From the IMG/VR virus record IMGVR_UViG_3300015615_000196, positions 32,001-96,000 of that record: DNA of 64,000 nt; one strand, given 5' to 3'. Under the pieces are notes generated by a model. It saw only the letters and a list, made by a program, of their open reading frames with translations, was not told the origin of the DNA and did not search any database. Source of the stretch: a virus. Taxonomy: Duplodnaviria; Caudoviricetes. Made by a program: the position numbers and the translations under genes. Position 1 is the stretch's first letter; each line of letters opens with the position of its first letter. This document shows, piece by piece, positions 8,504-63,841 of this stretch.

Positions 8504-9334
8504 ATGAAAGACGATCTTGGCGACCGAATGAAAACCTACTACGAAGACCGTACACGGATTTCATTGCCCCGTAGAACCTTTACCATTATCCGTATTGATG
8601 GTAAGGCATTCCACACCTACACAAAGGGTCTTACCAGACCATTTGATAACGATCTCATTGATGACTTGAATGAGACCACTAAGTTCCTGTGCCAAAGCAT
8701 TCAAGGAGTAAAGATGGGCTATGTTCAGTCAGACGAGATTTCGTTGGTGTTGACGGATTTCGAGAAACATTCAACTGATGCTTGGTTTGATGGCAATCTT
8801 CAAAAAATGGCCTCAATCTCAGCAAGTATGGCAACATCGAAATTCAACCAATTGAGAACGGTGCGTTTCTTGAGAAATACGATGCACACCTTATACTTGG
8901 AGAAGTTCAAGATGGCACATTTCGATAGCCGTGTGTTCACCATTCCATCATTGGAGGAAGTGATCAACTACTTTATTTGGAGACAGCAAGATGCTTCTCG
9001 CAACTCGGTATCGTCTGTTGCTCAGTCTTTGTATTCACACAAAGAATTGAACGGTAAGACTACCAGTGATATGCAAGAATTGATTTTCCAGAAAGGTCAG
9101 AACTGGAACGACTTTCCTGCTGGTCAGAAGCGTGGCCGTACCATTGTGAAGAGAACCGTTGTCGTTCCTACTACGAAGGATATTGTTGAGAAAGCACGAG
9201 ACAAATCAGCTTTCGTATGGGATGATGTGAAGGGTTATGGAATCAACCGTAACCAGTGGGTGATTGAAGAACCACCGATTTTCACAGAAGACAAGGATTA
9301 TATCCGATTGACAGTAATGAAAAAGGAGGCGTAA
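8504..9334 (+). CDS. thg1: tRNA(His) guanylyltransferase (Thg1-like)
   Basis: IRIDGKAFHTYT, GYVQSDEISL, FDSRVF and WRQQDASRNS motifs. Confidence 0.95.
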   Translation: MKDDLGDRMKTYYEDRTRISLPRRTFTIIRIDGKAFHTYTKGLTRPFDNDLIDDLNETTKFLCQSIQGVKMGYVQSDEISLVLTDFEKHSTDAWFDGNLQKMASISASMATSKFNQLRTVRFLRNTMHTLYLEKFKMAHFDSRVFTIPSLEEVINYFIWRQQDASRNSVSSVAQSLYSHKELNGKTTSDMQELIFQKGQNWNDFPAGQKRGRTIVKRTVVVPTTKDIVEKARDKSAFVWDDVKGYGINRNQWVIEEPPIFTEDKDYIRLTVMKKEA

Positions 9335-11045: not shown

Positions 11046-12290
11046 CTATTTGTTAAATCGGTTGAACGCATTAGTTGTGATCAAGGTATAATCTACTTTT
11101 CCAACGAAGTTGCGTAAACTGTTTGCGTTGCAGTAACTCATTGTACTTCTCAGATAATCCTCGAAATTTTTTGTCCACTGTTCAAGAGTATACTCCACAG
11201 TCAACCTTCTAACAACACCCTCAGAAGTTTTCAGTACTTTGTTGCCCAATGCTCTTTGTGCACCTTTCGTACTCATGCCTCTGAATTCTTTCTTTATTGT
11301 GAATCCTCTCTCGTACAAAAACTTTGCAATAGTAGGATTTATTTTGATACCACGCCAATAATTTTGACCAGAACTTTCAAGTGCTTTGGTGAACATACTG
11401 CCAACCATCACATAATCAGCACCAAGCGCAAGTGCTTTTATTATGTCAGAATATTTTTTCATTCCACCATCGGCAACAATCTTCACTGGATTCTTGTGTT
11501 TTTGTTTTATTGCATTACATTCTGCAATCAAACTTGCCATCGGATAACCTACTCCCGTTTGTTGGGTGGTTAAGCAACCATTACCGTTGCCGATACCAAC
11601 ACGAGCATAATCGATTATGCCGGAGTCACAATACACTTGATATGTTTGAGGATTGGCAATGTTACCTGCCATGATCTTCACTTGCGGATATTTCTTCTTG
11701 ACCTTTACACACCATTCCAATACCATGCTCATGTGACCATTGGCAATATCCAATAGTACATGTTTAACGTCAGTGAAGTCCGGGATTTCATTCAAACCAT
11801 ATGAGGTGAATGTGCCGTTAATCATATTCTTGTTGGAAGTTCTCGGCAGAACTACTCCAATTTTATTTTGAGAAAACTGATATGCATTATGGAGCGAAAC
11901 TACCGTGTCCATCGGAGCGGTGAACAAAGGGAGAACATCCTGATCCCAACCAAAATCTGTTTTGTGGTAAGGGTTAATTAAGTTTCCTTCGTATCGACTA
12001 CGGATATTCGTTTGTGCTTTTGGAATGAGCGTGATGTCATCAAAGTCGAATCTTACTCCTGATCTCAAGCCCTGCAATTGCATCGAACCAATTTCAATTG
12101 TTGGTACAGGCGGTATCGGAGTATCAATTAACTCCTTCGGTATTTCACTGTGAGAAACAAATTGCTCTGTAAGTGTTTCATTTGCAGGAGATTCAATTCC
12201 TTGATTCGGCATTTTCACATCTATGCTTTTGTCTTGCACAGACATGCTTCTGTCCCCGTTGGGGTCTTTCAACTTGTGCGATGAAGCCAT
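11046..12290 (-). CDS. GMP reductase / IMP dehydrogenase family protein
   Basis: FDDITLIP, APMDTV, DIANGH, AGNIA, RVGIGNGNGCLTT, IVADGG and ALGADYVMVGS motifs. Confidence 0.9.
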   Translation of the reverse strand: MASSHKLKDPNGDRSMSVQDKSIDVKMPNQGIESPANETLTEQFVSHSEIPKELIDTPIPPVPTIEIGSMQLQGLRSGVRFDFDDITLIPKAQTNIRSRYEGNLINPYHKTDFGWDQDVLPLFTAPMDTVVSLHNAYQFSQNKIGVVLPRTSNKNMINGTFTSYGLNEIPDFTDVKHVLLDIANGHMSMVLEWCVKVKKKYPQVKIMAGNIANPQTYQVYCDSGIIDYARVGIGNGNGCLTTQQTGVGYPMASLIAECNAIKQKHKNPVKIVADGGMKKYSDIIKALALGADYVMVGSMFTKALESSGQNYWRGIKINPTIAKFLYERGFTIKKEFRGMSTKGAQRALGNKVLKTSEGVVRRLTVEYTLEQWTKNFEDYLRSTMSYCNANSLRNFVGKVDYTLITTNAFNRFNK

Positions 12291-12292
12291 GA

Positions 12293-12790
12293 TTAAGCGA
12301 GTCTGAACTTAGATAAGAATTCCTTTAGCAGGAAATTTTTTTCTCCACCGATTTGCTGTTTGAATGCTACTTCATCGAAGATGATGTGTATTGCAGGAAC
12401 AACTTCCATTGTACCATACTTAATAGGCTTCAACGCTGCTGCTGCATCGGGATACTTCTCACGATTCCAGATACGTTCATCTGCCAAGAAACAGAATGCA
12501 GTCATGCCGTTGTAGAGATCGGGTTCTTTGAAGAACGCAAGATCAACAATTTGATTATCGACCAAGTAACGGAAATGTTCGTTCAATGAAATTGATGAAC
12601 CACCATTTAGAATAATGATGGTTTTATCGCGTCCAGCCCAAGTCTGGTATTCTTCGGTATGACCGAATGCTCGTGCATGTTCAACAATTGCGTGAGCAGC
12701 TTGAATGCCCTGTTGAATTGGACTGAGGTTGTATAGAACAATGACATACATTCTTTGTTCTAACGGAGTGGCTTCTTTTTGTTCGTCCAT
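12293..12790 (-). CDS. Peptidyl-tRNA hydrolase Pth2-like protein
   Basis: RMYVIV..LSPIQQGIQAAHA, KTIIIL and FKEPDL..MTA pattern of phage Pth2-like proteins. Confidence 0.7.
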   Translation of the reverse strand: MDEQKEATPLEQRMYVIVLYNLSPIQQGIQAAHAIVEHARAFGHTEEYQTWAGRDKTIIILNGGSSISLNEHFRYLVDNQIVDLAFFKEPDLYNGMTAFCFLADERIWNREKYPDAAAALKPIKYGTMEVVPAIHIIFDEVAFKQQIGGEKNFLLKEFLSKFRLA

Positions 12791-13273
12791 TTTAAATATG
12801 GATTTCTCTCAAGTTATTCCCGACCATTGCACCAGCAATATCAAAGTCAACATCGAAGTCACCGTGTTCATCCCAAAATCCACCGCCTCTGTATGTTATA
12901 TCTATAATCAGATATTCAGCAGATGGTAGTATTCTGAAAAGATCATCACGAGTGTGCTTGGTGAAGTGATCCAGATAAGGGCGAAGATCGACATTTTTTA
13001 CCATATCTTCAAGTCCCATGTTCGATAATTCTTCGCTCAATAGTTTGTCTACTGTGGCGACATCGAACAGGATCAAAGATTCCTCGCCATCATCAGTAAA
13101 TTGAAGCCAATAATCTGCATTGTGAATTTTACCTTCACTATCAATACAAAATTTTGGCAATACACTGGTTAAATAGCGATCATGGGAAAACTGCTTCCGT
13201 AGTTGCCCGATCTCGTTCCCTGTCATTTGATAGACCTCAAGGGAAAGAAGTGTTCTGTGTTTAGTTCTCATAG

Positions 13274-13467
13274 TAAATGAAATGAGCGTACCCTGAATTC
13301 TGTTCTATTGTGTCATTTATCTGTTTGCAGCAACCCGATTAATAGGCTTGGTCAACCCTAATCTGTTAGCCTTGCATCTTCGCGGTGATAACGGCTTTCG
13401 CCTCCCGCAAGCCAAATTGATGTTCAAAGTTCCTCTCCGTAGAGCGACACATCCTCTGTTTCATTTA
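13274..13467 (-). ncRNA. rnpB: Minimal RNase P RNA (catalytic domain with truncated S-domain)
   Basis: P1 UAAAUGAAA/UUUCAUUUA; P2 UGUGUCG/UGACACA; GAGGAACUUUGAA and ACAGAAUUCAGGGUAC (P4 strands); P5 CAUC/GAUG followed by CAAGGC; P6 GGCUUG/CAAGCC; AGAUAAAUGA. Confidence 0.8.
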
Positions 13468-13870
13468 ATGAGTCCCATGAACCAGCATGTGATAACGAAT
13501 AGATGGCCACTGAATATCACAATATAGTTCAAAAGAAGCACCGTTGGTGATATATACGGCTTTCTGTAGAAAAGGTTGCTCACTCCTACAGATACCACAA
13601 TAATCAAAGGTACAACCCATAAATTAGTAAACAAAGTGAGTGCAAACCAAGGAACAAATGCTGATTGCACAAATGTCCGCAACTCCGTATTATCTCTCCG
13701 ATATTCTACAGCAAGTTTCATACGATACAATTGCGGTAGAATTTTCATTTTTGAAATGTACCTTCTCTTCAACTCCAACATGTAGGAGAACTCAAAGTTG
13801 TACATTGCAAACAGTGCGTCTATTGCAAGGAATATACTTAGAAAAAATATTATGTGTGCGAACAGTGTCA

Positions 13871-14401
13871 TTAACCTACCTTCACCTTGTTGGCTATTTC
13901 TTTGTGGAACGCAGCCAAGAATGCTTCTTTAGCTTCTTTCGGTGACATACAACGCATTGGTGGATATTCTGTGTCTGGCTTTTCAAGCATGACAACTTCC
14001 CACTCCCACTTCAACAGAAGAATATCAACTCTTTCAACTTCCGGTGATTTTGGATAATTGAAGTTGAACTTCTTCGCCAGCACATTCATCAAGTTGTCCT
14101 CGATTGAATTGTACTCTGCCAATTCAAGTTTGATTGGCTTCGGCATATCCAGCAAGTATGCTTCACTTGCATCGTGCATTAAAGCATCGAACTTGTAAGG
14201 CTCTTTTGCAACTTCATAGCATAACAATGAATGCTGTGCTACGGAATAGAATCTTGGGAGGTGTCCACCGAATCGACATTGATTTGACAATGCGTGTGCA
14301 ATGTCCTCAATGAGTAACGTGTCTGGATTAGGCTCAAATACGTTTACGTACTGCCCTGAAATCGTTCTTATAGAACGAACAGCATACAAATTCTCTGTCA
14401 T
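13871..14401 (-). CDS. HD-domain (YfbR/YfdR-like) deoxynucleotide phosphohydrolase
   Basis: DIAHALSNQCRFGGH, YSVAQHS and ALMHDASEAY motifs. Confidence 0.85.
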   Translation of the reverse strand: MTENLYAVRSIRTISGQYVNVFEPNPDTLLIEDIAHALSNQCRFGGHLPRFYSVAQHSLLCYEVAKEPYKFDALMHDASEAYLLDMPKPIKLELAEYNSIEDNLMNVLAKKFNFNYPKSPEVERVDILLLKWEWEVVMLEKPDTEYPPMRCMSPKEAKEAFLAAFHKEIANKVKVG

Positions 14402-15102: not shown

Positions 15103-15749
15103 TATCCGAAAATTTTAACGTTATACAATTTTTCCAAGTTTTGTTTTTTGTCCATTGACTCACTGTCCCAAGTACTTACATGTTCATTCACGTTGTAGGC
15201 TTCAAGTTCACCTGCAACTTGTTTCATCATCTGCTGTAGTTCGGGCACTGAGATCGGTTCTTGATAATTCACAACTGAGAATTCATCACCGTTGACATTT
15301 GTTCTTACGTTGATTTTGCTCTTGAGAATGTCACTCTCTTTCAACGGCTCAGTGTAATGAATCACAGGTTTACCATTGACCATATTGACGCTCTTCGTCC
15401 TGTAAATCACATTGTTATACAAGTAGTACGATTGAGCATCCTTTATTTTGTAGAAGACACCCTTATGGTACGACAAATTGATTTCATCGAGTAGTCCATA
15501 GTTCTCAAGTGTCTTTGCCAGTTCATCCGTTGTCTTTGGCAAACGTTTAGTAACGATGCTGACGAATGATTTTAAATGACCGGGTGGAAGATCAGGGTGA
15601 CTTACGATACGCAAGCTACCTTGAGGACGTGAGTCGTTTGGATAATAAAGTATCCATCGTGCATCCACGTCAAATTCAGAAACGTGACCGAACTTTCGTT
15701 GCCACGTTCCTTGAACTACTGTACCACTGTCATCATCTTCCTCAGCCAT
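15102..15749 (-). CDS. Hypothetical protein
   Basis: ORF coupled to its neighbours. Confidence 0.6.
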   Translation of the reverse strand: MAEEDDDSGTVVQGTWQRKFGHVSEFDVDARWILYYPNDSRPQGSLRIVSHPDLPPGHLKSFVSIVTKRLPKTTDELAKTLENYGLLDEINLSYHKGVFYKIKDAQSYYLYNNVIYRTKSVNMVNGKPVIHYTEPLKESDILKSKINVRTNVNGDEFSVVNYQEPISVPELQQMMKQVAGELEAYNVNEHVSTWDSESMDKKQNLEKLYNVKIFG

Positions 15750-16426
15750 TACTTACGAGTTCTTTTATCGTAAACGTCATCAATGATGCCGTATTCTTTT
15801 GCTTCGTTTGAACGCATCCATTTGTCACGGTTTGCATCCTTACTGATTTGCTCAACAGTCTTGCCAGTAGCATTTGCAAGAATCTCATAGAGGTCTTTGG
15901 TAACTTCTTGAGTTTCCTTCAATGCAATCTCCATATCAGAGACCACACCACGCATACCACTTGACGGTTGGTGAATCATTACCCGTGAATGTTTCAATGC
16001 TCCACGCATTCCCTTCTCACCACAAGCGAGTAACACTGCTGCCATTGATGCAGCCATACCAGTACACAAAGTACCAACTTTTGGTTGGATGTAGTTCATC
16101 GTATCGTAGATACCGAACCCATCGTATACTGAACCACCCGGAGAGTTGATGTACATCAAGATGTCTGACTTTGAATCAGTTGATTCAAGATACAACAATT
16201 GTGCTGTGATCAAGTTGGATACCAAGTCATCGATCCCCATGCCGAGAAAAATAATTCGGTCGGCAATTAATCTGGTGAAAACGTCAATAGGTCTGAAATT
16301 GTTTGGACGTTCCTCAATGATGTAGGGAGTCATATTCGAAACGTAGTTGTTGTAGGAGTCAACGGCATTACCGCTCATTCCCAAATGGTGAACCGCATAT
16401 TTGCGGAAATCATTTTCTTTGTTCAT
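15749..16426 (-). CDS. clpP: ATP-dependent Clp protease proteolytic subunit
   Basis: YINSPGGSV, GMAASMAA and RVMIHQP motifs; Bacteroidota-like N-terminus. Confidence 0.95.
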   Translation of the reverse strand: MNKENDFRKYAVHHLGMSGNAVDSYNNYVSNMTPYIIEERPNNFRPIDVFTRLIADRIIFLGMGIDDLVSNLITAQLLYLESTDSKSDILMYINSPGGSVYDGFGIYDTMNYIQPKVGTLCTGMAASMAAVLLACGEKGMRGALKHSRVMIHQPSSGMRGVVSDMEIALKETQEVTKDLYEILANATGKTVEQISKDANRDKWMRSNEAKEYGIIDDVYDKRTRK

Positions 16427-21472: not shown

Positions 21473-21817
21473 ATGGAGAAGATTTCTAAAGTCATCAGAT
21501 CACACGCGAATGGATCAATGTTCGAGTACGTGTTCTTTTGTCCGGGATGTGGTTGTGCACACGGGATTCGTACTACAAGTTGGCCGATGCCAACCGGATT
21601 AACAGAAGAGTACATTGAACTCTTCCAGAACAAATGGACTTTTAATGGTGATGTTGAGAAGCCTACTATACACCCTTCCATTCATGTATGGCATAAAGAT
21701 AAGAAAGGCAATAAAACTACAACTTGCCATTCGTTCGTTACGGAAGGTAAAATCCAATACCTCAATGATTGTATCCACGATTTAAAGGGACAGACAATCG
21801 ACTTGCCGGATTTTTGA
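21473..21817 (+). CDS. Zn-binding DUF6527-like protein
   Basis: FCPGCGCAH, PTIHPSI and CHSFVTEGKIQYLNDCIH. Confidence 0.6.
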   Translation: MEKISKVIRSHANGSMFEYVFFCPGCGCAHGIRTTSWPMPTGLTEEYIELFQNKWTFNGDVEKPTIHPSIHVWHKDKKGNKTTTCHSFVTEGKIQYLNDCIHDLKGQTIDLPDF

Positions 21818-21893
21818 GCACAAGGTGGGATTCGAACCCACGACATATGCCTGTTTTGCAGACAGGAGCCTTGAACCACTTGGCGACATGTGC
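21817..21893 (-). tRNA. tRNA-Cys(GCA)
   Basis: Cloverleaf, CCUGU-CUGCAAA-ACAGG. Confidence 0.9.
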
Positions 21894-21898
21894 GTGTG

Positions 21899-21980
21899 TA
21901 CCCCCGACAGGATTCGAACCTGTACGCCTTTCGGCACTACGTTCTAAGCGTAGCATGACTACCATTTCCAACACGGGGGC
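21899..21980 (-). tRNA. tRNA-Leu(TAG)
   Basis: Type II cloverleaf, loop CUUAGAA. Confidence 0.92.
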
Positions 21981-22516
21981 ATTTTAATCTCTTTCTAATA
22001 AGTATTTATGGGTATGCAGGGAGTAAACGAAATAACCAACATTTTCAAGGACGACCAAGAATACATTCCGGTCATTGCTGATCACGGAACGGTTGATGAT
22101 GCCATTTTCGGTGCTGCACTTCGTAAGGGTCATCTACCCAAATCCAATGTTACTACCGAATCTTTCAACATTGTCAAGAAGAATATCTACAAGATACACA
22201 AGCATGACGTGCCAAAGTTACTCAAGCTGCTCGAAGGTCTCAACAAAAGGCATCAAAATCAATTTCAGCCTCACATTGACGACATTTCTTACCACTTCAA
22301 CTCAATCAAAAAGAAGAACTAATCCTTATCTACATCGTTGAGTACGTACTTCACAAGAAGCACAACTGCGATTGTACTGAAAGGAATAAACAGTATGATC
22401 AAATCGATCAAGAAAAGAACTGGATTAATGAATCCATGATTCTTCAACTTGTAGTAAGTTGTCAACGGGAGGATTATTCTCCACCAGTTGAATTGCTTGA
22501 TCTTATCCATCATATG

Positions 22517-22598
22517 TACCCTTGGAGGGACTCGAACCCCCACGCCTCACGGCACTGGCTTCTTAGACCAGCGTGGCTACCAATTACACCACAAGGGC
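22517..22598 (-). tRNA. tRNA-Leu(AAG)
   Basis: Type II cloverleaf, CUGGU-CUAAGAA-GCCAG. Confidence 0.88.
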
Positions 22599-22627
22599 AT
22601 GTACATTTAAATACTGAGAAGTATTTG

Positions 22628-22698
22628 AGCCTTGACTGAGAATTGAACTCAGATTCTTTGTTTACGAAACAAAAGTTTTGCCGTTAAACTATCAAGGC
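22628..22698 (-). tRNA. tRNA-Thr(CGT)
   Basis: Loop UUCGUAA. Confidence 0.85.
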
Positions 22699-22705
22699 AA
22701 TTTTT

Positions 22706-22780
22706 TGGAGCCTCCAATGAGAATCGAACTCATGTTTCTCCCTTACCAAGGGAATGTTCTACCATTGCAACTATGGAGGC
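22706..22780 (-). tRNA. tRNA-Thr(GGT)
   Basis: Loop UUGGUAA; encoded CCA. Confidence 0.92.
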
Positions 22781-22786
22781 TTATAC

Positions 22787-22872
22787 AAAGTATTGTTCTG
22801 ACATTGAACTACGCCCTTACGTCATGATCGTAATTTGAGGATCGGTGGGACTCCAACCCACAACTATACTTC
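22787..22872 (-). ncRNA. Circularly permuted tRNA-like (Y RNA/YrlA-like) RNA 2
   Basis: T-arm GUGGG-UUGGAGU-CCCAC lies 5' of D-arm GUUC-AAUGUCA-GAAC; closed by AAGUAU/AUACUU. Confidence 0.6.
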
Positions 22873-22874
22873 TG

Positions 22875-22947
22875 AGACCGTAACGGGACTCAAACCCGTA
22901 GCTTTTCGTTTTAGGGACGACCACTCTATCAGTTGAGTTATACGGCC
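22875..22947 (-). tRNA. Amber suppressor tRNA(CUA)
   Basis: GGCCGUA/UACGGUC acceptor, U73; GUCGU-CCCUAAA-ACGAA; C33 instead of U33. Confidence 0.75.
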
Positions 22948-22956
22948 AAATATTAG

Positions 22957-23161
22957 AACAACAAGCACTCTGACATTGAGTTACATCCGTGCAGTGGCCA
23001 CTGTACATGTCAAACTTTGGATTCTTCCCTGATGACTTGACGTTGTAAGGGGAATTCTCATATTGCTACAAGAATTACAACATCTTTATAACGCCTTTGC
23101 TCTGGTATCGAACTTTCAGCTTGGTGGATGATGGGAATCCAACCCACAACTTCTTGTTGTT
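22957..23161 (-). ncRNA. Circularly permuted tRNA-like (Y RNA/YrlA-like) RNA 1
   Basis: AACAACAAG/CUUGUUGUU closing stem; T-arm GUGGG-UUGGAUU-CCCAU; CAUCC/GGAUG acceptor-like stem with ~140-nt insert; D-arm ACUC-AAUGUCA-GAGU. Confidence 0.6.
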
Positions 23162-23164
23162 TTG

Positions 23165-23237
23165 TGCGGAAGGTGAGAATCGAACTCACATTACTGGTTT
23201 TTCAAACCAGCACCTTGACCACGTTGGTAACAACCGC
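23165..23237 (-). tRNA. tRNA-Phe(GAA)
   Basis: Loop UUGAAAA. Confidence 0.85.
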
Positions 23238-23243
23238 ATATCG

Positions 23244-23315
23244 TGGAGATAATGGGAATCGAACCCACTTGTGATGTCGTCTGACACCAAACTCGTCCAT
23301 TGAGTAACTATCCCC
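23244..23315 (-). tRNA. tRNA-like RNA with Ala acceptor identity and non-canonical anticodon arm
   Basis: GGGGAUA/UAUCUCC (G3:U70), A73, normal T-arm; 7-bp stem capped by AGAC. Confidence 0.55.
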
Positions 23316-23818
23316 TACTAAATAATTTCTTCAAAAATTTCCATTTGGTATCGACACCCGTTGTCGGATATGTCTCTACATCAAAAACCTCTTTGTAACC
23401 TGACCAGCAATCGTCTGGCATTTTTGTCCAGACACAGAACATTCCAATTGCCGGAGTGTCTTTTCCGAGTTTCAACAATCGCCACGTTCCACCATATATT
23501 TTGCGATACCATTTCTTATCCAAGAAATTGCTACCCCAATACATGTTCTCTTGTTTCCGTAGCAGGTCTAACGATTCTGTTACCATTTGTCGTAGTCGGT
23601 TAAGTTGATTTTTTTACCGTCTGCTCTTTCTACTTCTACAACAGTTCCAAGTCCTGTTGGTGTAAACATGAAGGTGTACCCACCACCGATTGTAGCAGGA
23701 GGAAGTTTCTTCAACTTCTTATTCCATGCTTCGAGTTTTTTGATTTCATCTTCATCCAGTTCAAACTTGTAACTGGTTAAGATTTTTCCTGTATTTGCTT
23801 TCATACAAATAATTTATG

Positions 23819-23907
23819 CTCTTCCTATAGGATTCGAACCTATGCGGGGTGATTGCCACCCACCTGATTAACAGTCAGGACTTTTCGGCCACTAAAGCAA
23901 AGGAAGA
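23819..23907 (-). tRNA. tRNA-Asn(GTT) with long variable arm
   Basis: Loop CUGUUAA; GGGUG-gcaau-CACCC extra arm. Confidence 0.8.
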
Positions 23908-24112
23908 ATTTATTCATCAAATCCGGTTTCGTAAAAACCAGTCGTAATGAAGTCTGTATTATTCAATCCGATAAATCTGAATTTCTCCACAAGTTCGGGA
24001 TTGATCTTAACAACGTTTCCGTTGTCGTCAAGAAACTGGATGTCCTTCAAGTCAACCTTGTTGATCTCTCGTCTACGGGCATCCAGTTCTAAAATTTCGC
24101 TTATTTTTACTT

Positions 24113-24478
24113 TCATACTTCTGAAACTACTGCAAAGTAGATTTCTTTTGGCATTTCTCCAAATATGAATGCAGTTACATCACACAACCACATATTGAAA
24201 TCATAATCGATGCTCTTGTACGATTTGAGGTTGTACACTGCACCACCAACTTCTTCCATATCCGGCACACCGTTGCAAACCCATGTGAGTTTGTCGGCCC
24301 CGCCAAAATCTTCATCAGCAAATCTCAACTTAATTTCTCCTTGTCCTTGAGAAAGTATGTCAAGAAAACTATCAGCACCAAGAACCATTTGGAGTGCATC
24401 TTTACCACCTTCCCATTCAGGAAGATCAATATACCAGTTCCCCGATGTCTCTTTGTAAAACTTGCATGTCCTTTCCAT
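24113..24478 (-). CDS. Hypothetical protein (DUF6717-like)
   Basis: WYIDLPEW...LQMVLGAD...WLCDVT..FGEMPK.IY. Confidence 0.55.
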   Translation of the reverse strand: MERTCKFYKETSGNWYIDLPEWEGGKDALQMVLGADSFLDILSQGQGEIKLRFADEDFGGADKLTWVCNGVPDMEEVGGAVYNLKSYKSIDYDFNMWLCDVTAFIFGEMPKEIYFAVVSEV

Positions 24479-24795
24479 AGTGCTTCTTTATTTTGTTCAG
24501 AAGAGCAAGGTCTTCTGCGTTGTAATCATCATCTTTTTTCTTCTTGTTCATTTCTTCGATTGATTCGTAGAAACGAATTCGGTGTCTCCACACGTACTTT
24601 GCACCAACTGCTTTCTTGAATGTTCTTAAATCCAGATCATCGTGTAACCAGTAAAGTGCGTAATCTTGTCCTGCGTAACCTTCAATGAAATCTTGTCCTT
24701 CAATTAATTCTGATTTTAGTATTGCCTTGCGAATGTATTTCTTGTAGTGTGTAAGTCCCTTAATGTAAATCGTTCTCATTGTTTTGTTTCATATG

Positions 24796-24883
24796 CAGAG
24801 AGTGAGGGATTCGAACCCCCGTTACCCGCAAGGGGTAATCCAGTTTTCAAGACTGGTGCAATCATCCACTCTGCCAACTCTCT
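24796..24883 (-). tRNA. tRNA-Ser(TGA)
   Basis: Type II, loop CUUGAAA. Confidence 0.92.
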
Positions 24884-24902
24884 ATTGTAGTAATACATAC
24901 TC

Positions 24903-25406
24903 TCATATTAGTGAAAGTATTGATTCTGTCGCGTTTTTCAAACTGATTTCAACATACGGTACTTTGAACCATTCCAGACAACGAAGCACTTCTTCGTCTA
25001 CTTTGATCGCGTCTTCAAGTTTCTGCGATCTCCCGTGTTCTTTGTATTCAGTCTCACGTTTCAAGAAGAAGTTCAAGTTCTGGTATCTCTTGAATTCGTG
25101 AAAGACGTTTGCATGGAAGTGTTTGTTGTCGTCACCTTTTCCACTGTACACGATTGAATTGAACAGTGGTGCATCGGTTACGGCAATGTCAATCGTATCT
25201 TTCAGACGGAAGAATTTCTGGTGCTGATTCGCGAAAATCATTTGCTGATTTTCCATCATTTTGAATGACTGGTTCCACGTAAGTTCTTTTGCGTACTCGT
25301 CAACATATTCAACTTTGAGTTGCTTCATGTTTAGTTCCGTGAAAACCCTCATTGCAACCGTTGTCTTACCGACTCCGGGGCCACCAAAAAGATTGATTAC
25401 CTTCAT
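24903..25406 (-). CDS. P-loop kinase (NadR/AAA_28-like)
   Basis: MKVINLFGGPGVGKTT, EYAKE and TDAPL; true start lies after the tRNA. Confidence 0.75.
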   Translation of the reverse strand: MKVINLFGGPGVGKTTVAMRVFTELNMKQLKVEYVDEYAKELTWNQSFKMMENQQMIFANQHQKFFRLKDTIDIAVTDAPLFNSIVYSGKGDDNKHFHANVFHEFKRYQNLNFFLKRETEYKEHGRSQKLEDAIKVDEEVLRCLEWFKVPYVEISLKNATESILSLI

Positions 25407-25447
25407 AAGATTTGCTTTCCACAAATATATGAAATCTCTTTTGAATT

Positions 25448-25540
25448 TGGAAGAGGGTGTGGGACTCGAACCCACAAATCGGAATGGTTACCGACTTGCT
25501 CGTTTTCAAGACGAGTTCTTCATCCAGCCAGATACCCTCT
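25448..25540 (-). tRNA. tRNA-Ser(TGA), atypical D-arm
   Basis: Loop CUUGAAA; long variable arm; CCA. Confidence 0.75.
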
Positions 25541-25546
25541 ATGGTT

Positions 25547-25636
25547 TGGCAGAGAGTACAGGACTCGAACCTGTAAGACGTTTTACCGTCACGCCTGTTT
25601 TCGAGACAGGTGCATTGCCAATTATGCTAACTCTCT
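25547..25636 (-). tRNA. tRNA-Ser(CGA)
   Basis: Loop CUCGAAA; CCA. Confidence 0.9.
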
Positions 25637-25644
25637 GTGTATTG

Positions 25645-25733
25645 AGGAAAAGATGGGAGTCGAACCCACATTGGCGGTTCGTTGCCAGTGACGGCCCGGT
25701 TTCCTCCATATTAACCAGTTATAAGACCTTCCC
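25645..25733 (-). tRNA. Atypical tRNA-like RNA, anticodon unresolved
   Basis: Acceptor GGGAAGG/CUUUUCC and T-arm present; no canonical anticodon arm. Confidence 0.45.
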
Positions 25734-25870
25734 AAGTTAAATGTGTTGTTGTAAGTAGTAAGGGGTCGAACCTTTTTATGCCGTCCTCTTCTTTCCGTTT
25801 TCACTGTTCGAACAGTTACTAACGTGTCTGCGCAGACCAACACCGAAGTTATAAGCCCCGGCCACATTTG

Positions 25871-25943
25871 AGCGAGTGAAGGGACTCGAACCCTCAACTC
25901 CTGATTGGAAGTCAGGTGTGTTAGCCATTAGCACCACACTCGC
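25871..25943 (-). tRNA. tRNA-Gly(TCC)
   Basis: Loop CUUCCAA. Confidence 0.92.
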
Positions 25944-26098
25944 AGATGTCAAAACTTATTGTTTGGTATTTTGACTGGATGCCCATCATACCCTGCCGGA
26001 TATAAAAGTTTCCTGATTCTCTCAACATCACCATTGTCCACCAGTTCTAATCAACTGAAACAATCCTTGCATAGATGAATAGTCTACACAAGCCCGTG

Positions 26099-26170
26099 AG
26101 CAGATAGAGGGAATCGAACCCTCGTCCGTGCCTTGGCAAGGCACTATAATAACCACTATACGACATCTGC
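26099..26170 (-). tRNA. tRNA-Gly(GCC)
   Basis: Loop UUGCCAA. Confidence 0.9.
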
Positions 26171-26331
26171 GGATCAAAGCAGCATTGTTTTTTCAGGGTG
26201 ATCAAACCCTCTGGCTCCACGCATCACCACTGACCCACTTCACATTGATCAAATGTTCATCATGGTTCGCTGACACTTAAACGGTTTAAACATTCACTTA
26301 CGCCACGCGAGTAAGCTACACTACTTCAAAG

Positions 26332-26405
26332 AGCGAATAGTGGGGTTCGAACCCACGAGCCTTCTCCTTGGCAAGGAGACGTTCTACCAACTGAACTACA
26401 TTCGC
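26332..26405 (-). tRNA. tRNA-Gly(GCC)
   Basis: Loop UUGCCAA. Confidence 0.92.
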
Positions 26406-26468
26406 ATGGAGGCAGAGAGGCAGTGCTCCCACTGTGAGTCCCTTTTAAACTCTGCCATTTAATTATTG

Positions 26469-26542
26469 CTGGTTGGGTGAGAGTCGAACTCACATCTTAC
26501 AAGTTAACAGCTTGCCGTTTTACCAATTAGTACTACCAACCA
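26469..26542 (-). tRNA. tRNA-Asn(GTT)
   Basis: Loop CUGUUAA. Confidence 0.85.
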
Positions 26543-26547
26543 AAGTG

Positions 26548-26638
26548 CGGAGAGTGAGGGATTTGAACCCCCGGAACCCTTTTACGGGTTCGCCTGTTTA
26601 GCAAACAGGTGCAATCGGCCAGACTCTGCCAACTCTCC
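26548..26638 (-). tRNA. tRNA-Ser(GCT)
   Basis: Type II, loop UUGCUAA. Confidence 0.92.
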
Positions 26639-26642
26639 ATTA

Positions 26643-26727
26643 TGCATCGTATACGATTCGAACGTATGATTCTTTAAAGGAATGTCCGCTACACGCAGAC
26701 CGTCTTAAACCACTCAACCAACGATAC
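26643..26727 (-). tRNA. Leu-type tRNA body with aberrant anticodon loop (CGUGUAG)
   Basis: A73, long variable arm; GUCUG-CGUGUAG-CGGAC. Confidence 0.55.
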
Positions 26728-26733
26728 ATGTTG

Positions 26734-26806
26734 TAGGCAATGAAGGACTCGAACCTTCCTGACCACTTTATAAGAGTGGCATAATCCACCCATATATGAA
26801 TTGCCC
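26734..26806 (-). tRNA. tRNA-Ile(TAT)
   Basis: CCACU-CUUAUAA-AGUGG. Confidence 0.85.
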
Positions 26807-27159
26807 ATTTATTTTTTTCGACCACCATTCAAAATTTCGACTTTGAATTTTGTCTTGATCACATTCAAGATCAAAGTCTTTACAAACTCTGGTAGTTTGC
26901 TGTTGTTTTTTACTTCCTCTTCAAACTGATGAACCATCAATGATCCATAGTAGTTCTTGTTTCTTATGGTTTTCAAATCAACAAAGAATTTGTTGTATCT
27001 CTGCATGATTCGATTCACAGACCAAGTGATGTCCGGTCGATTCAATTCTTCCAGAACTTCTTCTAAGACAACGGCACATCTGTATTCTCTTGATGTGTAT
27101 GCATCTGCCCTAAATTTTTTCTCATACGGTTTGTGTTCCATAAATTTATTTAAGTTTTG

Positions 27160-27272
27160 CTGTACCAGTAGGATTCGAACCTACATAAGGAGATTAGGAC
27201 GTTACTGTCTTTCTCTCTTTTTCCTCTCCCCTGAGACAGAGGGGAAATGTCTGCCAGTTCCACCACAGTACA
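27160..27272 (-). tRNA. tRNA-Asp(GTC)-like with ~40-nt variable insert
   Basis: CCCCU-CUGUCUC-AGGGG, G73, purine-rich insert. Confidence 0.6.
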
Positions 27273-27279
27273 ATTTATG

Positions 27280-27352
27280 TCGTCAAGGTAGGATTCGAAC
27301 CTACAGTCTCCAAGGTATCAGCTTGGCGATTTAACCGTTAATCTACATGACG
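27280..27352 (-). tRNA. tRNA-Ile(GAT)
   Basis: Loop CUGAUAC. Confidence 0.88.
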
Positions 27353-27397
27353 ATAGCAAGTGCCATTTATTTTACCTGAATATGGCGAACAGTTTAG

Positions 27398-27469
27398 TAG
27401 GCAGTGAAGGAGTCGAGCCTTCGTGACGAACTTATCAGGTTCGCATAATAACCCTTATATGAACCGCCC
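27398..27469 (-). tRNA. tRNA-Ile(GAT)
   Basis: Loop CUGAUAA. Confidence 0.82.
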
Positions 27470-28055
27470 ATTTATTTTCTTGTTTTGAATTCTTCTACGT
27501 ACTCTTTTGCTTCCGGGTCTTTACCCCAACCTTCGTTTCCGCTTGAATGTGCACCAACAAAACCAAAATTTACTATAGTTGTAGTGAATCTAAAGGTGTA
27601 GTTACCAACCTGAAATTCTTTTGCCTCCGGGTCTTCCGTGATCGCAATCGTATCGACCTCTCTCACTTTGAATTTCTTTAGTGAGTCTTTGAAGGACTTG
27701 ATGTTTATGTTACAGACTTCCATTTTACATGTATTTTTTTACCCATTCTTCTCTGGATGCAATTGCTTCTATCATCATTTTCATCATGAGTGCAACATTC
27801 TCTTCACTGCTTGACGAATCATCGGCTTGTCTTGCCAACATTACTTGATGCTTCTTATTCAGAAGATAGTACTCCAAGATCGTTCCGTTTCCGTTGTTTT
27901 GTGCACCAACTAATTCGAAATTCAAAAGAGGTTTGTCTCTCTTTGTCAAGAGCCTCAACTTTCGTGTATTGATGAAACATAAATCCATTGTTTAGGTTTT
28001 ATTCGTCAAGTAATCGGTTATTCAACCCATCCCCCAATTCAGGATGCAACCAGAG

Positions 28056-28129
28056 TACTCTCGGAGGGACTCGAACCCCCAACCCTTTCGTTCGAAGCGA
28101 ATCGTTCTTCCAATTGAAACTACGAGAGC
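28056..28129 (-). tRNA. tRNA-Arg(TCG)
   Basis: Loop CUUCGAA. Confidence 0.88.
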
Positions 28130-28134
28130 ATATG

Positions 28135-28207
28135 TACCTTCGGAGGGAATCGAACCCCCATTTGATCGTTCGTAGCGACCCGTTCTGATCCGTTAAACTA
28201 CGAAGGC
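28135..28207 (-). tRNA. tRNA-Arg(ACG)
   Basis: Loop CUACGAA. Confidence 0.9.
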
Positions 28208-28218
28208 ATATTTTGTTG

Positions 28219-28291
28219 AACATCTGATGGGACTCGAACCCACAACTACCCGTTTAGGAAACAGGGGTTCTTCCAATTGAACTACAGATGC
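28219..28291 (-). tRNA. tRNA-Arg(CCT)
   Basis: Loop UUCCUAA. Confidence 0.9.
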
Positions 28292-28295
28292 TTAT

Positions 28296-28371
28296 TGGTA
28301 CACTCGGAGGGACTCGAACCCCCAACGACTTGTTTAGAAGACAAGCGTTCTTCCGGTTGAACTACGAGTGC
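28296..28371 (-). tRNA. tRNA-Arg(TCT)
   Basis: Loop CUUCUAA; CCA. Confidence 0.92.
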
Positions 28372-28668
28372 ATATTAATGTTCGAAACAATCATACACAT
28401 AGATAGGAGTTTGTTCTCCCATGTACGCACCTGAAATGTTGAACTCGAAAAATTCTATGGCTTCTTCGTGCGTCATACCATCCCTGCTCATTAGCTTTTG
28501 GATGATCTTACCCACAGAGTAACACAGTCTCATTTTTGATTCATCAACTCCGATGACTGCATCATCGTGACCGTCAACTGTCAAAAAATTTTCTTCTAAA
28601 TAATATTCCAAAATCTCTTTAAGCATTTTTTGAATATTTGAGTCAGTGTTAATTAGAATAATCCATTG

Positions 28669-28740
28669 TACCCCTGACAGGAATCGAACCTGTATCAAAT
28701 GATTAGAAGTCACTTATTCTGTCCATTGAACTACGGGGGC
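28669..28740 (-). tRNA. tRNA-Arg(TCT)
   Basis: Loop CUUCUAA. Confidence 0.92.
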
Positions 28741-29000
28741 AGATCGGTTTAAACTCCGAACGTGAATTGGAAGTTCTCCCCTAAATCTCTTTTCACCTTT
28801 TGTCTGATGATGTTCTTGAAGTTTCCTTCGAACAAGAATGCAGTCAAGCCAACGTGAGCAATCACTCTTTTTTGTTTTCCACTCTCTACGATTGTGGATA
28901 CTGAGTTGATGCCTTCGACTTCAACTAAATTCATTTCGTTCAACAGAACAAACTTGTCAGAGACTAAATCTTTGATTGTATACATGCATTTAATTTTTAG

Positions 29001-29083
29001 AGCCAACTGTGGGATTCGAACCCACGCGACCTCACGGTTCCTGATTACAAATCAGGTGCAATCGTCCTCTATGCGAAGTTGGC
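29001..29083 (-). tRNA. tRNA-Thr(TGT) with extra arm
   Basis: Loop UUUGUAA; ACC-gtga-GGU variable hairpin. Confidence 0.85.
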
Positions 29084-29260
29084 GTTTAATGTCAGTAAAT
29101 ATCTTGCCACAGATAAATACTGGCACTATTATGCGTAATTATACGGATTTTATCCCGCATACGCAAATAATACTTCTCAACATGTCAATGATCAAATGAG
29201 ACCAGTGAATAAGGCTGTGCTTCGGCAAGCACATTTACGGCAACCTTATTCAAGGTTTCG

Positions 29261-29332
29261 TGGGACTAACAGGAATCGAACCTGTGCTGCGAGATTTTCA
29301 GTCTCGTACTCTACCTACTGAGTTATAGTCCC
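29261..29332 (-). tRNA. tRNA-Phe(GAA)
   Basis: Loop CUGAAAA. Confidence 0.92.
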
Positions 29333-29337
29333 AAATG

Positions 29338-29466
29338 CACAAAGGGTGGGAGTCGAACCCACAAGATACTTGAACCTACTACGAGTCACCTTCGCTTGAA
29401 GGCTTCTCTTTTTTGTTCGTTCTCACCGTTTTGGAGACGGGTTACCTCACCAATGGTGGCCGATGT
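29338..29466 (-). tRNA. tRNA-Trp(CCA)-like with ~60-nt variable insert
   Basis: CCGU-CUCCAAA-ACGG; T-arm intact; acceptor has two mismatches. Confidence 0.55.
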
Positions 29467-29471
29467 GTGTG

Positions 29472-29542
29472 CACAGGTAGTAGGATTCGAACCCACATCA
29501 ACGGTTTTGGAGACCGCTATACTGCCGTTGTACGATACCTGT
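29472..29542 (-). tRNA. tRNA-Trp(CCA)
   Basis: Loop CUCCAAA. Confidence 0.9.
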
Positions 29543-48129: not shown

Positions 48130-48858
48130 TCCCAAAACGGGAATTAAATTATATGTTCTTCTCTCGGTATGGTTTCCTTTATTGGAACAAATCCAGCTTG
48201 AATTTCGTCATCGATGTCAGGGAGAAAACTTAATTTAGTTTTCTTCTTCCTGTTACCTTCGTTTTCCCAAAACCAAAAACACATTGCTGCGCTATCCCAC
48301 ATCGCTACGATCATAGGTTGATCTTTTGAATAGACTGTATAATTCTGCATTATATAGCCCGAATAATAATACCCATCTTTCAGGGTTGCTTTCTGCAACA
48401 CGTTAATCATACGTCACAAATTTAAAAATGAAATAAAAAGTCCACCCTGAGCGACCTGTTCAATGGGAAGGCGGGTGGACATGTTAAGGATAAATACTGA
48501 CCCTGAGAACGATTCACAACTAAAGTAGAATTAATGCCAGATGTTTCACCAGCACGTTTGGTCAGGAATATTACCAGTATCTATACCTTATTCTCTCGAT
48601 TCTTTCCTAAATGATAACCGTCACACCAGAGGCATTTATAGTTACTGAAATAAACGCCCCTCTTCTCAGACATTTTCTTTGCTGATTTTTGAGCCGTCTC
48701 TTTCGTGTTGTAACTCACCTTCGGTTCACCATTATCTCTCAAATGGCTGCGCTTATCAATCAGACCAAGTAAGTGACCTTTGAAAAGATTTCTCATTAAT
48801 CTCTTCATCGGTAGCTGGTCTTTAAACGCCAGTCTTATGTTTCTTAACTTGATCATAG

Positions 48859-48940
48859 TGGGAGCAGTAGGACTCGAACCTACGAAGCCCGGAGGCGACA
48901 GATTTACAGTCTGTTGTAATTGCCGCTATACGATACTCCC
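48859..48940 (-). tRNA. tRNA-Tyr(GTA)
   Basis: Type II, loop CUGUAAA. Confidence 0.9.
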
Positions 48941-48946
48941 AACGGT

Positions 48947-49318
48947 TTATCGCAGTTCAACCTCAGCACCAGCATTCAACAACTGGTTCTTGATGTTCTC
49001 TGCATTCTCTTTCGAGACACCTTCCGAAATTACTTTTGGCGCACCGTCCACAAGGTCTTTCGATTCCTTCAAGCCGATGTTAAGAAGGTCTTTCACCAAC
49101 TTAACGATTTGAAGTTTGTTTGCACCTGCTGATTTAAGAACGATGTCAAAATTTGACTTTTCTGCTGGTACATAGTCCCCATCACCCGGTGGATGATAAA
49201 TTGGTGCTGCGACTGATTGCTCAATCCCATACGTCTCCTTTAAATACTCTGCAAGTTCTTTTACCTCTTTGACAGAGAGATTCACAAGTTGATCACCGAG
49301 TGCTTTTACATCTTTCAT
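48947..49318 (-). CDS. rplL: Ribosomal protein bL12 (L7/L12)
   Basis: QLVNLSVKEVKELAEYLKETYGIE; FDIVLKSAGANKL...GLKESKDLVDGAP...AGAEVEL. Confidence 0.95.
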   Translation of the reverse strand: MKDVKALGDQLVNLSVKEVKELAEYLKETYGIEQSVAAPIYHPPGDGDYVPAEKSNFDIVLKSAGANKLQIVKLVKDLLNIGLKESKDLVDGAPKVISEGVSKENAENIKNQLLNAGAEVELR

Positions 49319-49959
49319 ACAGTTACAAGTTTTACGTCCTTCATTTCTGATTCAAACAAAGATACGTCTTTTTTTCTTAATCTTTCAAACCAGTCATCGG
49401 TTTTGATTTTACAGTAGTACAATTCAGGTCTCCCTTTCTTCGTTACTGAAACACCCTTACAGATGACTCCTTCCGTCAAGTTGAATTCGTTGGCTTTTAC
49501 TCGCGCAACCAATTCCTTATTTAAGTTTCCTTCATACACCACTCGCGGTATTCCAACCGATCCGAAATCCTTGACGAAATCTCTCGGTGGTACAAATCCG
49601 TTTTTGTATTGATCAACGTCAAAAAGAACGATGTCAAATTCATCGTTACCAAATTCGTGCTGACCAAATGCTGACTTCGTTCCAACCAGTTCAGCGTAGC
49701 AAACGAAACTCAAAATATTTCTGTACTCCCGTGATCGAAATATCTTGGAGAGAGATTCGTTGTACTTGTTCATGAACAAATCAATTGCGAATCCGAACTC
49801 GGAATTTTTGTCGATCATTTGTTTCCGAGTACCGAACTTGTAGAAGCCACGCTTGTGCGAGTATTCAAATCGCAAGTTCGATCCATCCAATTTATCAAAT
49901 GCAACTATTGGTAGTCCCCAATAATCACCGTAGTACTCAATACTATCGTACTGTTTCAT
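49315..49959 (-). CDS. RNA ligase-family nucleotidyltransferase
   Basis: DKLDGSN (KxDG), AELVG, LFDV, EGVICK and KIKT; start at MKQYD after tRNA-Tyr. Confidence 0.7.
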   Translation of the reverse strand: MKQYDSIEYYGDYWGLPIVAFDKLDGSNLRFEYSHKRGFYKFGTRKQMIDKNSEFGFAIDLFMNKYNESLSKIFRSREYRNILSFVCYAELVGTKSAFGQHEFGNDEFDIVLFDVDQYKNGFVPPRDFVKDFGSVGIPRVVYEGNLNKELVARVKANEFNLTEGVICKGVSVTKKGRPELYYCKIKTDDWFERLRKKDVSLFESEMKDVKLVTV

Positions 49960-49968
49960 AAATAAAGT

Positions 49969-50054
49969 TGGTGGGCAGGGAGGGATTCGAACCCCCGAAC
50001 TCCGAAGAGGACGCATTTACAGTGCGTTGCCGTTAACCACTTGGCTACCTACCC
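49969..50054 (-). tRNA. tRNA-Tyr(GTA)
   Basis: Type II; CCA. Confidence 0.93.
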
Positions 50055-50061
50055 ATTGATG

Positions 50062-50133
50062 TACCCTCGGAGAGATTCGAACTCTCGACTCGCTGATTAA
50101 GAGTCAGCTACTCTACCACTGAGTTACGAAGGT
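50062..50133 (-). tRNA. tRNA-Lys(CTT)
   Basis: Loop CUCUUAA. Confidence 0.9.
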
Positions 50134-50138
50134 ATCTG

Positions 50139-50211
50139 TTCCCCTGTTTGGAATCGAACCAAACCCCACTGATTAAGAGTCAGTTGCCTACAGCCAGTTT
50201 GCTACAGAGGA
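50139..50211 (-). tRNA. tRNA-Lys(CTT)
   Basis: Loop CUCUUAA. Confidence 0.85.
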
Positions 50212-50218
50212 ATATAAG

Positions 50219-50365
50219 TGGGATAGAGGGGAATTGCACCAATCGAAAGCCACAGCTAAATCTTTATGTACAATATTACAAATAGCCTAATCTTTCTTTT
50301 ATTTACCTTAGCCTTTTGAGCACCGTCTTCATGACGGCTCCGTTCATTTCACGAAAAGCTATCCC
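50219..50365 (-). ncRNA. tRNA-like RNA with a long insert
   Basis: GGGAUAG/CUAUCCC acceptor with A73; GCCGUC/GACGGU arm; degenerate T-arm. Confidence 0.4.
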
Positions 50366-50449
50366 ATATTTCAAAGAACGTGGGGATTGTACTGTGGCGA
50401 TTTCTCGATCTGACTGAACAGATTGCACATACTACTTCGTCCCCGAAAG

Positions 50450-50522
50450 TACCCCCATTTGGAATCGAACCAAACCCTTCTGGTTAAAAGCCAGAAGCCC
50501 ACGACCAGTCTGCTATGGAGGC
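50450..50522 (-). tRNA. tRNA-Lys(TTT)
   Basis: Loop CUUUUAA. Confidence 0.85.
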
Positions 50523-50531
50523 ATAACTGTG

Positions 50532-50604
50532 TGTCCCCGGAGAGGTTCGAACTCTCGACTCCCACATTAAAAGTGTGGTACTCTACCAACTGAGTTACAG
50601 AGAC
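50532..50604 (-). tRNA. tRNA-Lys(TTT)
   Basis: Loop CUUUUAA. Confidence 0.92.
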
Positions 50605-50621
50605 TTTATTTAAGTTTTCTG

Positions 50622-63120: not shown

Positions 63121-63125
63121 ATATG

Positions 63126-63840: not shown

Positions 63841-63841
63841 G

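Follow-up and report, generated by a model that had tools for sequence, protein, structure and literature searches.

The window analysed here, 64,000 nucleotides in length, comes from a complete 362,603-base jumbo phage genome with terminal repeats. An RNase P-type RNA of 194 nt was observed on its minus strand at 13274-13467, where it occupies the gap between two minus-strand ORFs, one upstream (13461-13871) and one downstream (12792-13271). A Thg1 homologue lies 4 kb from this mini RNase P RNA, and the gene order of the region, including Thg1, GMP reductase/IMPDH, a hydrolase (which we take to resemble peptidyl-tRNA hydrolase 2) and ClpP, was partly conserved in L172, L175 and L176. The parts of the RNA and its neighbours are given in Table 1.

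Table 1. Features of the mini RNase P RNA gene and its surroundings, in window coordinates.
Feature	Position	Strand	Basis or remark
Thg1-like tRNA guanylyltransferase	8504-9334	+	near mini RNase P RNA
GMP reductase/IMPDH	11046-12290	-	near mini RNase P RNA
Hydrolase, phrog_3668	12293-12790	-	near mini RNase P RNA
Mini RNase P RNA gene, 194 nt	13274-13467	-	ends set by helix P1; RNaseP_arch match; covariation
P1 5' strand; TGA stop of upstream ORF (13461-13463) inside	13454-13467	-	covaries among four clade members
P2 5' strand	13446-13451	-	P2 95-98% of cells paired
J2/3, single G	13445	-	mapped to sequence
P3 hairpin CUC-UACG-GAG	13435-13444	-	97% of cells paired
CR I: GAGGAA and P4 5' strand ACUUUGAA (13423-13430)	13423-13435	-	GAGGAA in search pattern; U69 position outside pattern
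P5 5' strand CAUC	13419-13422	-	P5 100% paired, covariation
P6 5' strand UUUGG	13412-13416	-	register from clade comparison
S-domain stub, 29 nt: P7 (UGCGG/CCGCG), GA, hairpin, 7-nt strand	13381-13409	-	28-34 nt stub in 40/40 members
Stub hairpin GGC-GAAA-GCC	13393-13402	-	part of S-domain stub
Stub strand GUUAUCA with U-N3-A motif (U 13390, A 13386)	13386-13392	-	final A 40/40, U four bases before 33/40
P5 3' strand GAUG and J5/15 CAA; A248 (13373) and A249 (13372) equivalents	13372-13378	-	both A invariant, n=40, outside search pattern
P15, L15, P16, P17, L17	13329-13371	-	helices covary
P6 3' strand CCAAG in loop L17	13347-13351	-	register from clade comparison
GGU in L15	13333-13335	-	invariant 40/40; outside search pattern
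CR IV AGAUAAAUG (J18/2 equivalent) and P2 3' strand	13309-13322	-	motif in search pattern
CR V ACAGAA and P4 3' strand UUCAGGGU (G357 equivalent 13293), then A361	13289-13303	-	P4 98% paired
P1 3' strand; ends 2 nt before ATG of downstream ORF	13274-13286	-	covaries among four clade members
Candidate phage promoter (AACCTTTT...CGTATA)	13553-13577	-	86 nt upstream of P1, inside upstream ORF
ClpP	15749-16426	-	near mini RNase P RNA

An earlier note on this DNA had described an intergenic, minimal RNase P RNA of ~194 nt, and this identification was borne out by a full-model match to Rfam RNaseP_arch (RF00373) at 13280-13460 (24.1 bits, below the gathering score of 84; E 6.6e-5) and by covariation within a family of homologues. 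At the gathering threshold Rfam returned tRNAs only, and the mini RNase P RNA fell below all Rfam cut-offs. The bacterial type A and archaeal type T models, which the note had proposed as a check, gave no match across the whole phage genome: the RNA was not detected by RF00010 (cut-off 100 bits), and RF02357 (cut-off 60 bits) had no match at E up to 10. Folding of the window RNA as a single sequence was not significant (z -1.0, with pseudoknots outside the model). A covariance model built from the family alignment (R1), whose training set included the window sequence, found one copy in the genome.

P1, P2, a tiny P3, P5, P15-P17, the GGU, AGAUAAAUG and ACAGAA could all be mapped to the sequence as the note had them. 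P18, called essentially absent there, was absent in the window copy, as were P8, P10-P14, CR II and CR III, while P2 measured 6 bp. The predicted replacement of the S-domain by ~30 nt corresponded to a stub of 29 nt composed of P7, GA, a GAAA hairpin and a 7-nt strand. CR I (GAGGAA), CR IV (AGAUAAAUG) and CR V (ACAGAA) were all present; the invariance of these three among homologues is built into the search pattern by which the homologues were found.

This pattern combined CR I, CR IV and CR V at short spacing, which favours short members. Scanning of IMG/VR viral DNA gave 48 loci, 41 of them homologues (~35 distinct); of the other seven, five matched coding DNA by chance and two belonged to different types of RNase P, and all seven were set aside. 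Across 40 aligned members 89.9% of cells were paired, compared with 61.2% in shuffled alignments and 34-45% in slid controls. Two-sided (compensatory) change was found in 45 of 52 base pairs, including P4 and P6, the covariation among phage homologues that the note had asked for, and every helix covaried, both pseudoknots included. P4 was 98% paired, with two-sided change in six of its eight pairs, and its pairs 67-359 and 68-358 varied freely in the family, unlike the fixed bacterial sequence. Bases invariant outside the search pattern were C18, C20, U69, C75, A248, A249, the GGU of L15 and three to four stub bases. The window RNA shares the family's 28-34 nt stub with G-G-A-G and an invariant A, and its covarying 67-359 and 68-358 pairs.

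Model R1 also recognised three RNAs outside its training set, in the cultured Stenotrophomonas phage DLP6 (107 bits) and in the huge phages LR756501 (128 bits) and LR756511 (122 bits), where the RNA copies are unannotated; bacterial-type and archaeal RNase P RNAs scored at most 47 bits. These phages were reached only with more typical family members as queries: blastn of the window copy against GenBank phages gave chance matches only, and neither the downstream protein nor a DNA pattern specific to the window led to viral relatives. A tRNA gene was observed within 5 kb in 30 of 43 loci, many abutting the RNA on the same strand. No flanking protein family was shared by more than 4 of the 43 loci, and RnpA was not found in five other member genomes. 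A few family members kept hairpins at the P18 position. At the P16/P17 junction, most members (alignment A2) had UA opposite UAUGAU or UAUAAU, which looks like a kink-turn variant, and the window clade had a 2-nt bulge instead. The same pattern gave at least 120 matches in cellular contigs, mostly ordinary rnpB genes; among the matches listed, contigs of metagenome-assembled genomes (MAGs) carried family-type mini RNase P RNAs in a Planctomycetia (L118) and a Bacteroidales (L150) assembly. Because both genomes also carry a canonical rnpB, these two are probably phage contigs, and they may offer clues to hosts.

Comparison within the clade of the window RNA (window, L020, L175 and L176) altered the assignment of P6. 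The GGCUUG/CAAGCC helix of the earlier note was complementary in three clade members, was broken in L020, overlapped P7 and P17, and lay outside the P6 position of the family. UUUGG/CCAAG (UAUUGG/CCAAUA in L020) held in all four members at the family P6 position and is the likelier P6. The S-domain stub was observed in all 40 aligned members, always as P7, GA, a hairpin with variable loop and a strand of 6-7 nt that ended in A (40/40) and had U four bases earlier (33/40). Since the hairpin loop was not a conserved GNRA across the family, docking on P1 would be no family trait. The interdigitated T-loops of CR II and CR III were absent, and the stub contained at most one T-loop-like U-N3-A. Position 4 of this motif was a pyrimidine in 33 of 40 stubs, where known T-loops usually have a purine. 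The stub has the same topology as the P7-P9 region of archaeal type T, and its U-N3-A (33/40), pyrimidine-rich, matches a T-loop loosely. According to a model published in 2026, archaeal type T has one T-loop, located between P7 and P9, which stacks on tRNA C56 (PMC13462272). By analogy, the phage stub may touch the tRNA elbow through one T-loop-like element; we offer this as a hypothesis because the sequence match is loose.

The feature that most sets the window copy apart was found in P4. Here ACUUUGAA/UUCAGGGU formed a continuous 8-bp helix with no bulge, the 5' strand having 8 nt compared with 9 nt in 34 of the 40 members. In these 34, the order is three pairs, U69 as a bulge, C70 without variation and a further four pairs. 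The universal bulged U, present in the 34, is by sequence absent in the window copy, where a U is found and 8 nt face 8 partners. The U69 equivalent lies at 13427 opposite G357, and the C70 equivalent is missing; the simplest reading is that C70 was deleted and that U69 would pair across from G357 rather than bulge. The earlier note was correct that P4 deviates from the consensus, but its pairing did not stand, and the real change is the missing C70 with loss of the bulge geometry. An alternative register keeping the bulge was rejected: it requires A.G or A.C plus G.G mismatches and does not work for L175 or L176.

Short P4 strands were observed in six RNAs (window, L020, L175, L176, L170, L171). 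Besides the window copy, L020 was the sole case among the 41 homologues of the unbiased scan, while the other four came from a targeted scan whose pattern required G357/G358. U was kept at position 69 in all six, and in all six the U69.G357 wobble adjoined a second weak pair, which was U68.G358 in four of this small number. The two with C68-G358 instead had U.G or A.A at 71-356, not seen in 9-nt members. The window copy, L020, L175 and L176 formed one clade (100/100) on a long stem, and L170 and L171 formed separate long branches, each from a single contig in which errors are possible (short-P4 branch lengths 0.46, 0.93 and 1.12). At least two independent lineages, and probably three, lack the base.

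Within the clade the RNAs were 80-94% identical, compared with 25-64% for neighbouring proteins and ~50%, the background level, for the flanks. All eight variable pairs stayed paired, four by two-sided change, including C67-G359 to G67-C359. With four independent assemblies and this swap, the register is fixed, and it is very unlikely that the clade reflects a sequencing error. The higher identity of the RNA than of the proteins argues that the short P4 is not decay, and this conservation, together with the retention of pairing, indicates strong purifying selection on the altered RNA. A sister RNA, L007, has a 9-nt P4 with the bulge. In the E. coli holoenzyme, substitution of U69 costs >500-fold and C70U ~250-fold in catalysis with binding unchanged (PMC11221534). 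In T. maritima and archaeal holoenzymes, activity fell ~13-fold when the P4 uridine was altered or removed, and for the RNA alone the loss was 20-100-fold; the uridine was described as 'not irreplaceable' (PMC3488217).

Upstream of P1 we observed a candidate phage promoter. Its motif, AACCTTT-N-CGTATA, occurs in 31 copies in the phage genome compared with 0-1 in shuffles, and 20 of the 31 lie within 60 nt upstream of an ORF start (4% expected). The motif was kept at the same place in the relative L176, and two other relatives had TATATTTG, which we take to be a Bacteroidota-type promoter element, 24-39 nt upstream of the mini RNase P RNA. A scan for sigma-70 promoters and terminators gave chance levels. 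Named relatives of the phage ClpP are Bacteroidota (~68% identity), a weak pointer to a Bacteroidota host. The host is probably Bacteroidota, an assignment based on this ClpP similarity and on the TATATTTG motif in two relatives.

The genome is rich in tRNA functions. ARAGORN found 61 tRNA genes, with arrays at window 21816-29542, 48858-50876 and 62576-63913, and a nucleotidyltransferase domain of the class II CCA-adding type was detected (PF01743, E 2e-24). This domain is C-terminal in a protein of 987 aa whose N-terminal part is long (G000:228527-231490, L180). Two tRNAs had the CUA (amber) anticodon (window 22875-22947, minus strand, and G000:299220-299292); TAG recoding was not clearly indicated by a rough count of ORFs. 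Models of tRNA-Sec and tmRNA matched weakly between tRNA genes (window 29338-29469, 25451-25541 and 23241-23315 (-)), and these tRNA-like RNAs could be further substrates. No match to RnpA (PF00825), Pop5/Rpp14 (PF01900), HARP (PF08745) or bS21 was found in the complete phage genome.

The earlier note had suggested that the RNA can process the many non-canonical phage tRNAs. A role dedicated to such tRNAs was not supported by the tRNAs themselves, the elbow being canonical in most (normal T-loop in 56/61, D-loop GG in 58/61). Only 5 of the 61 tRNA genes encode the full CCA, while C74 was present in 54 of 56. Leaders converged on A-U-A-U before the cut, with U(-1) in 41, A(-2) in 44 and A(-4) in 36 of 56, and A(-2)U(-1) is optimal for bacterial RNase P (PMC10731613). 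Because the leader and C74 pattern is the preference of bacterial RNase P, it shows that the phage tRNAs, as encoded, rely on an RNA-based RNase P, of the host or of the phage; the biases fit host RNase P equally well. In the window clade, 8 kb separate the RNA from the nearest tRNA, and it is outside the tRNA array.

The RNA has the catalytic-domain fold, invariant substrate-contact bases and a conserved 29-nt stub, it is under strong purifying selection, and the phage has no recognisable protein subunit. The explanation that we favour, with moderate confidence, is a working phage ribozyme that would mature the 5' ends of ~60 pre-tRNAs together with host RnpA, U69 still serving a catalytic metal. 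[quoted passage not shown] Further arguments for a working ribozyme are the covariation of every helix with GGU, A248/A249, C18, C20, U69 and C75 invariant outside the pattern, the position of 30 of 43 loci near tRNA genes, the fit of this phage's tRNA leaders to bacterial RNase P, and, in the clade, an RNA that outconserves its neighbours with compensated pairs and with U69 kept in 6/6 short-P4 RNAs beside a second wobble or mismatch. The ~13-fold cost of losing or mutating the P4 uridine in two holoenzymes, where it is 'not irreplaceable' (PMC3488217), also argues for this.

Such an enzyme would be transcribed from the upstream phage promoter and then trimmed to P1. Host RnpA, which the note had named as the probable borrowed partner and which is the likely one given that no phage subunit was found, would bind the intact P2/P3/P4 and J18/2 surface (in a host that is probably Bacteroidota) and hold the leader. 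The GGU of L15 could pair with N73-C74 or, once the phage enzyme has completed the CCA, with RCC, while A248 may read U(-1). The stub may contact the elbow through one T-loop-like element, in the manner modelled for archaeal type T, a step against which the pyrimidine at position 4 in 33/40 speaks and for which the T-loop reading is weak. The O4 of U69 might still reach the catalytic Mg2+: U69 could present it within a major-groove U.G wobble or could flip out of a locally weak P4, and the rate would probably be lower than that of the canonical enzyme. By analogy with the published E. coli work, loss of the S-domain (~120-fold) and the U69/C70 effects would stack two handicaps, and the long branches of the short-P4 RNAs could reflect a changed function. 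The stronger statement, that a natural viral RNase P is catalytically competent with a bulge-less P4 and no double-T-loop ruler, using U69.G357 as metal ligand and a single T-loop-like stub, and that phages reached this more than once, is put forward tentatively and may well prove wrong.

Other roles were weighed against this working ribozyme. The RNA might be a slow or non-cutting binder of RnpA and tRNA ends, in which case it would soak up RnpA, protect tRNA ends or serve as a decoy. Binding and catalysis come apart in the E. coli mutants U69A and C70U, this position has lost its base at least twice and probably three times independently, in each case on a long branch, and the window clade sits 8 kb from the nearest tRNA and outside the array, all of which would suit a binder. 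Yet U69, A66, CR V and J5/15 are all kept, a U at 69 in 6/6 would gain a decoy little, and titration of RnpA would harm a phage whose own tRNAs depend on RNase P-type processing; we regard this role as unlikely. Activity directed mainly at RNAs other than tRNA, for example mRNAs, hairpins or the tRNA-like spacers of phage non-coding operons, for which a full S-domain would be unneeded, is an improbable alternative. The C-domain does cleave hairpin substrates and RNase P has many non-tRNA substrates. Against this stand the association of the family with tRNA arrays and a stub whose conservation is that of a functional contact, and the analysis identified no particular substrate other than tRNA.

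Less probable again is an RNA whose activity depends on a phage protein that escaped recognition and that either takes the place of the S-domain or makes up for P4, in the way that archaeal proteins support type T. The reliance of type T on Rpp29, Rpp30, Pop5 and L7Ae offers a precedent, and the free variation of pairs 67-359 and 68-358, unlike the fixed bacterial sequence, and the 6-bp P2, as in archaea, would fit. Against such a cofactor, the complete genome has no RnpA-, Pop5- or HARP-like gene, five other members have no RnpA, and no flanking protein family occurs in more than 4 of 43 loci. We give very little credence to a decaying relic of a captured rnpB gene. Scores below all Rfam cut-offs and the missing canonical bulge are what decay might leave, but the RNA is far more conserved than the adjacent proteins and has compensatory changes, and the clade comparison largely refutes this reading.

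A full-text literature search, with subscription journals mostly outside its coverage, yielded no account of an RNase P RNA encoded by a phage, and the huge-phage paper whose genomes carry the mini RNase P RNA describes none. If the RNA is active, large phages would bring their own ribozyme for tRNA 5' processing, completing a tRNA toolkit with the CCA-adding enzyme and Thg1. The family also provides naturally minimal RNase P RNAs with which to address an old question, the purpose of the S-domain and of the P4 bulge. The window copy makes the bulge question testable, since one inserted C should restore the canonical bulge, with L007 and DLP6 as comparators. A non-cutting binder, were it that instead, would be a ribozyme-derived decoy and also new.

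Compared with known members of the RNase P RNA superfamily, Rfam clan CL00002, the window RNA is, judged from its sequence, a type A-like catalytic domain with a type T-like reduction, below the RF00010 and RF02357 cut-offs and lacking the universal bulge. It shares with bacterial type A (RF00010; E. coli M1 RNA, T. maritima P RNA) the P1-P6 and P15-P17 topology, a single-G J2/3, CR I, IV and V, A248/A249, the GGU in L15 and the P6 pseudoknot, and for some family members RF00010 is the best-scoring model (49-55 bits). It differs in its length (194 nt compared with 350-400), in the absence of P8, P10-P14, CR II, CR III and P18, in its 6-bp P2, in the variable 67-359 and 68-358 pairs, in the missing C70 and consequent lack of a bulge, and in being virus-encoded without rnpA. 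Two other viral RNAs were closer to the bacterial type. A 286-nt near-canonical bacterial type A RNA (L037:12124-12409; IMGVR_UViG_3300010401_000033, 135 kb; 191.5 bits) sits in a viral tRNA array with tmRNA, which suggests that phages captured rnpB more than once. A 207-nt bacterial-type RNA (L028:10596-10802; IMGVR_UViG_3300028920_000026, 191 kb) at the end of a tRNA array has canonical P4 and P18 and a deletion from ~P12 to L15, a reduction unlike that of the mini family. A Rhizobiales MAG (L106:7567-7794) had an rnpB with a large internal S-domain deletion, which may be an assembly artefact.

With archaeal type T (RF02357) the phage RNA shares a similar size, a one-stem S-domain with a loop between P7 and P9, the lack of P18, a 3-bp P15, and the retention of P6 and P15-17. 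This likeness is probably convergent. The phage RNA differs in its P2 (6 bp compared with 3), its J5/15 (3 nt, CAA, compared with 2), its U-N3-A motif with pyrimidines in place of UAAAA, and its lack of an RF02357 match; no archaeal protein subunit was found in the phage, and type T is described as having the universal P4 positions. Archaeal type A (RF00373) gave the best Rfam match (24.1 bits) and shares the 6-bp P2, the absence of P18 and a variable P4 sequence, while the score is far below 84, the phage RNA lacks the S-domain and has a 1-nt J2/3, and the host appears bacterial. A ~180-nt archaeal RNase P RNA from a Micrarchaeota MAG (L124:3899-4077; WAKO01000015.1; 75 bits, below cut-off) seems to keep the S-domain T-loop motifs without P15-P17, the opposite reduction.

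The reduced RNase P RNAs of CPR bacteria (Patescibacteria; PMC8172020) are likewise diverged, below model cut-offs and missing helices, but they are cellular and have lost P12-P14 or P15-17 piecemeal; for the megaphages of that paper, only tRNAs and tmRNA were reported (PMC8172020). The engineered E. coli C-domain RNA, Eco CP RPR (PMC5839562), retains the same parts, with P6 needed and P18 dispensable, and the U69/C70 mutants (PMC3488217, PMC11221534) alter the same active-site position. These constructs were made in the laboratory and suffer large rate losses, whereas the phage RNA is natural and under strong selection.
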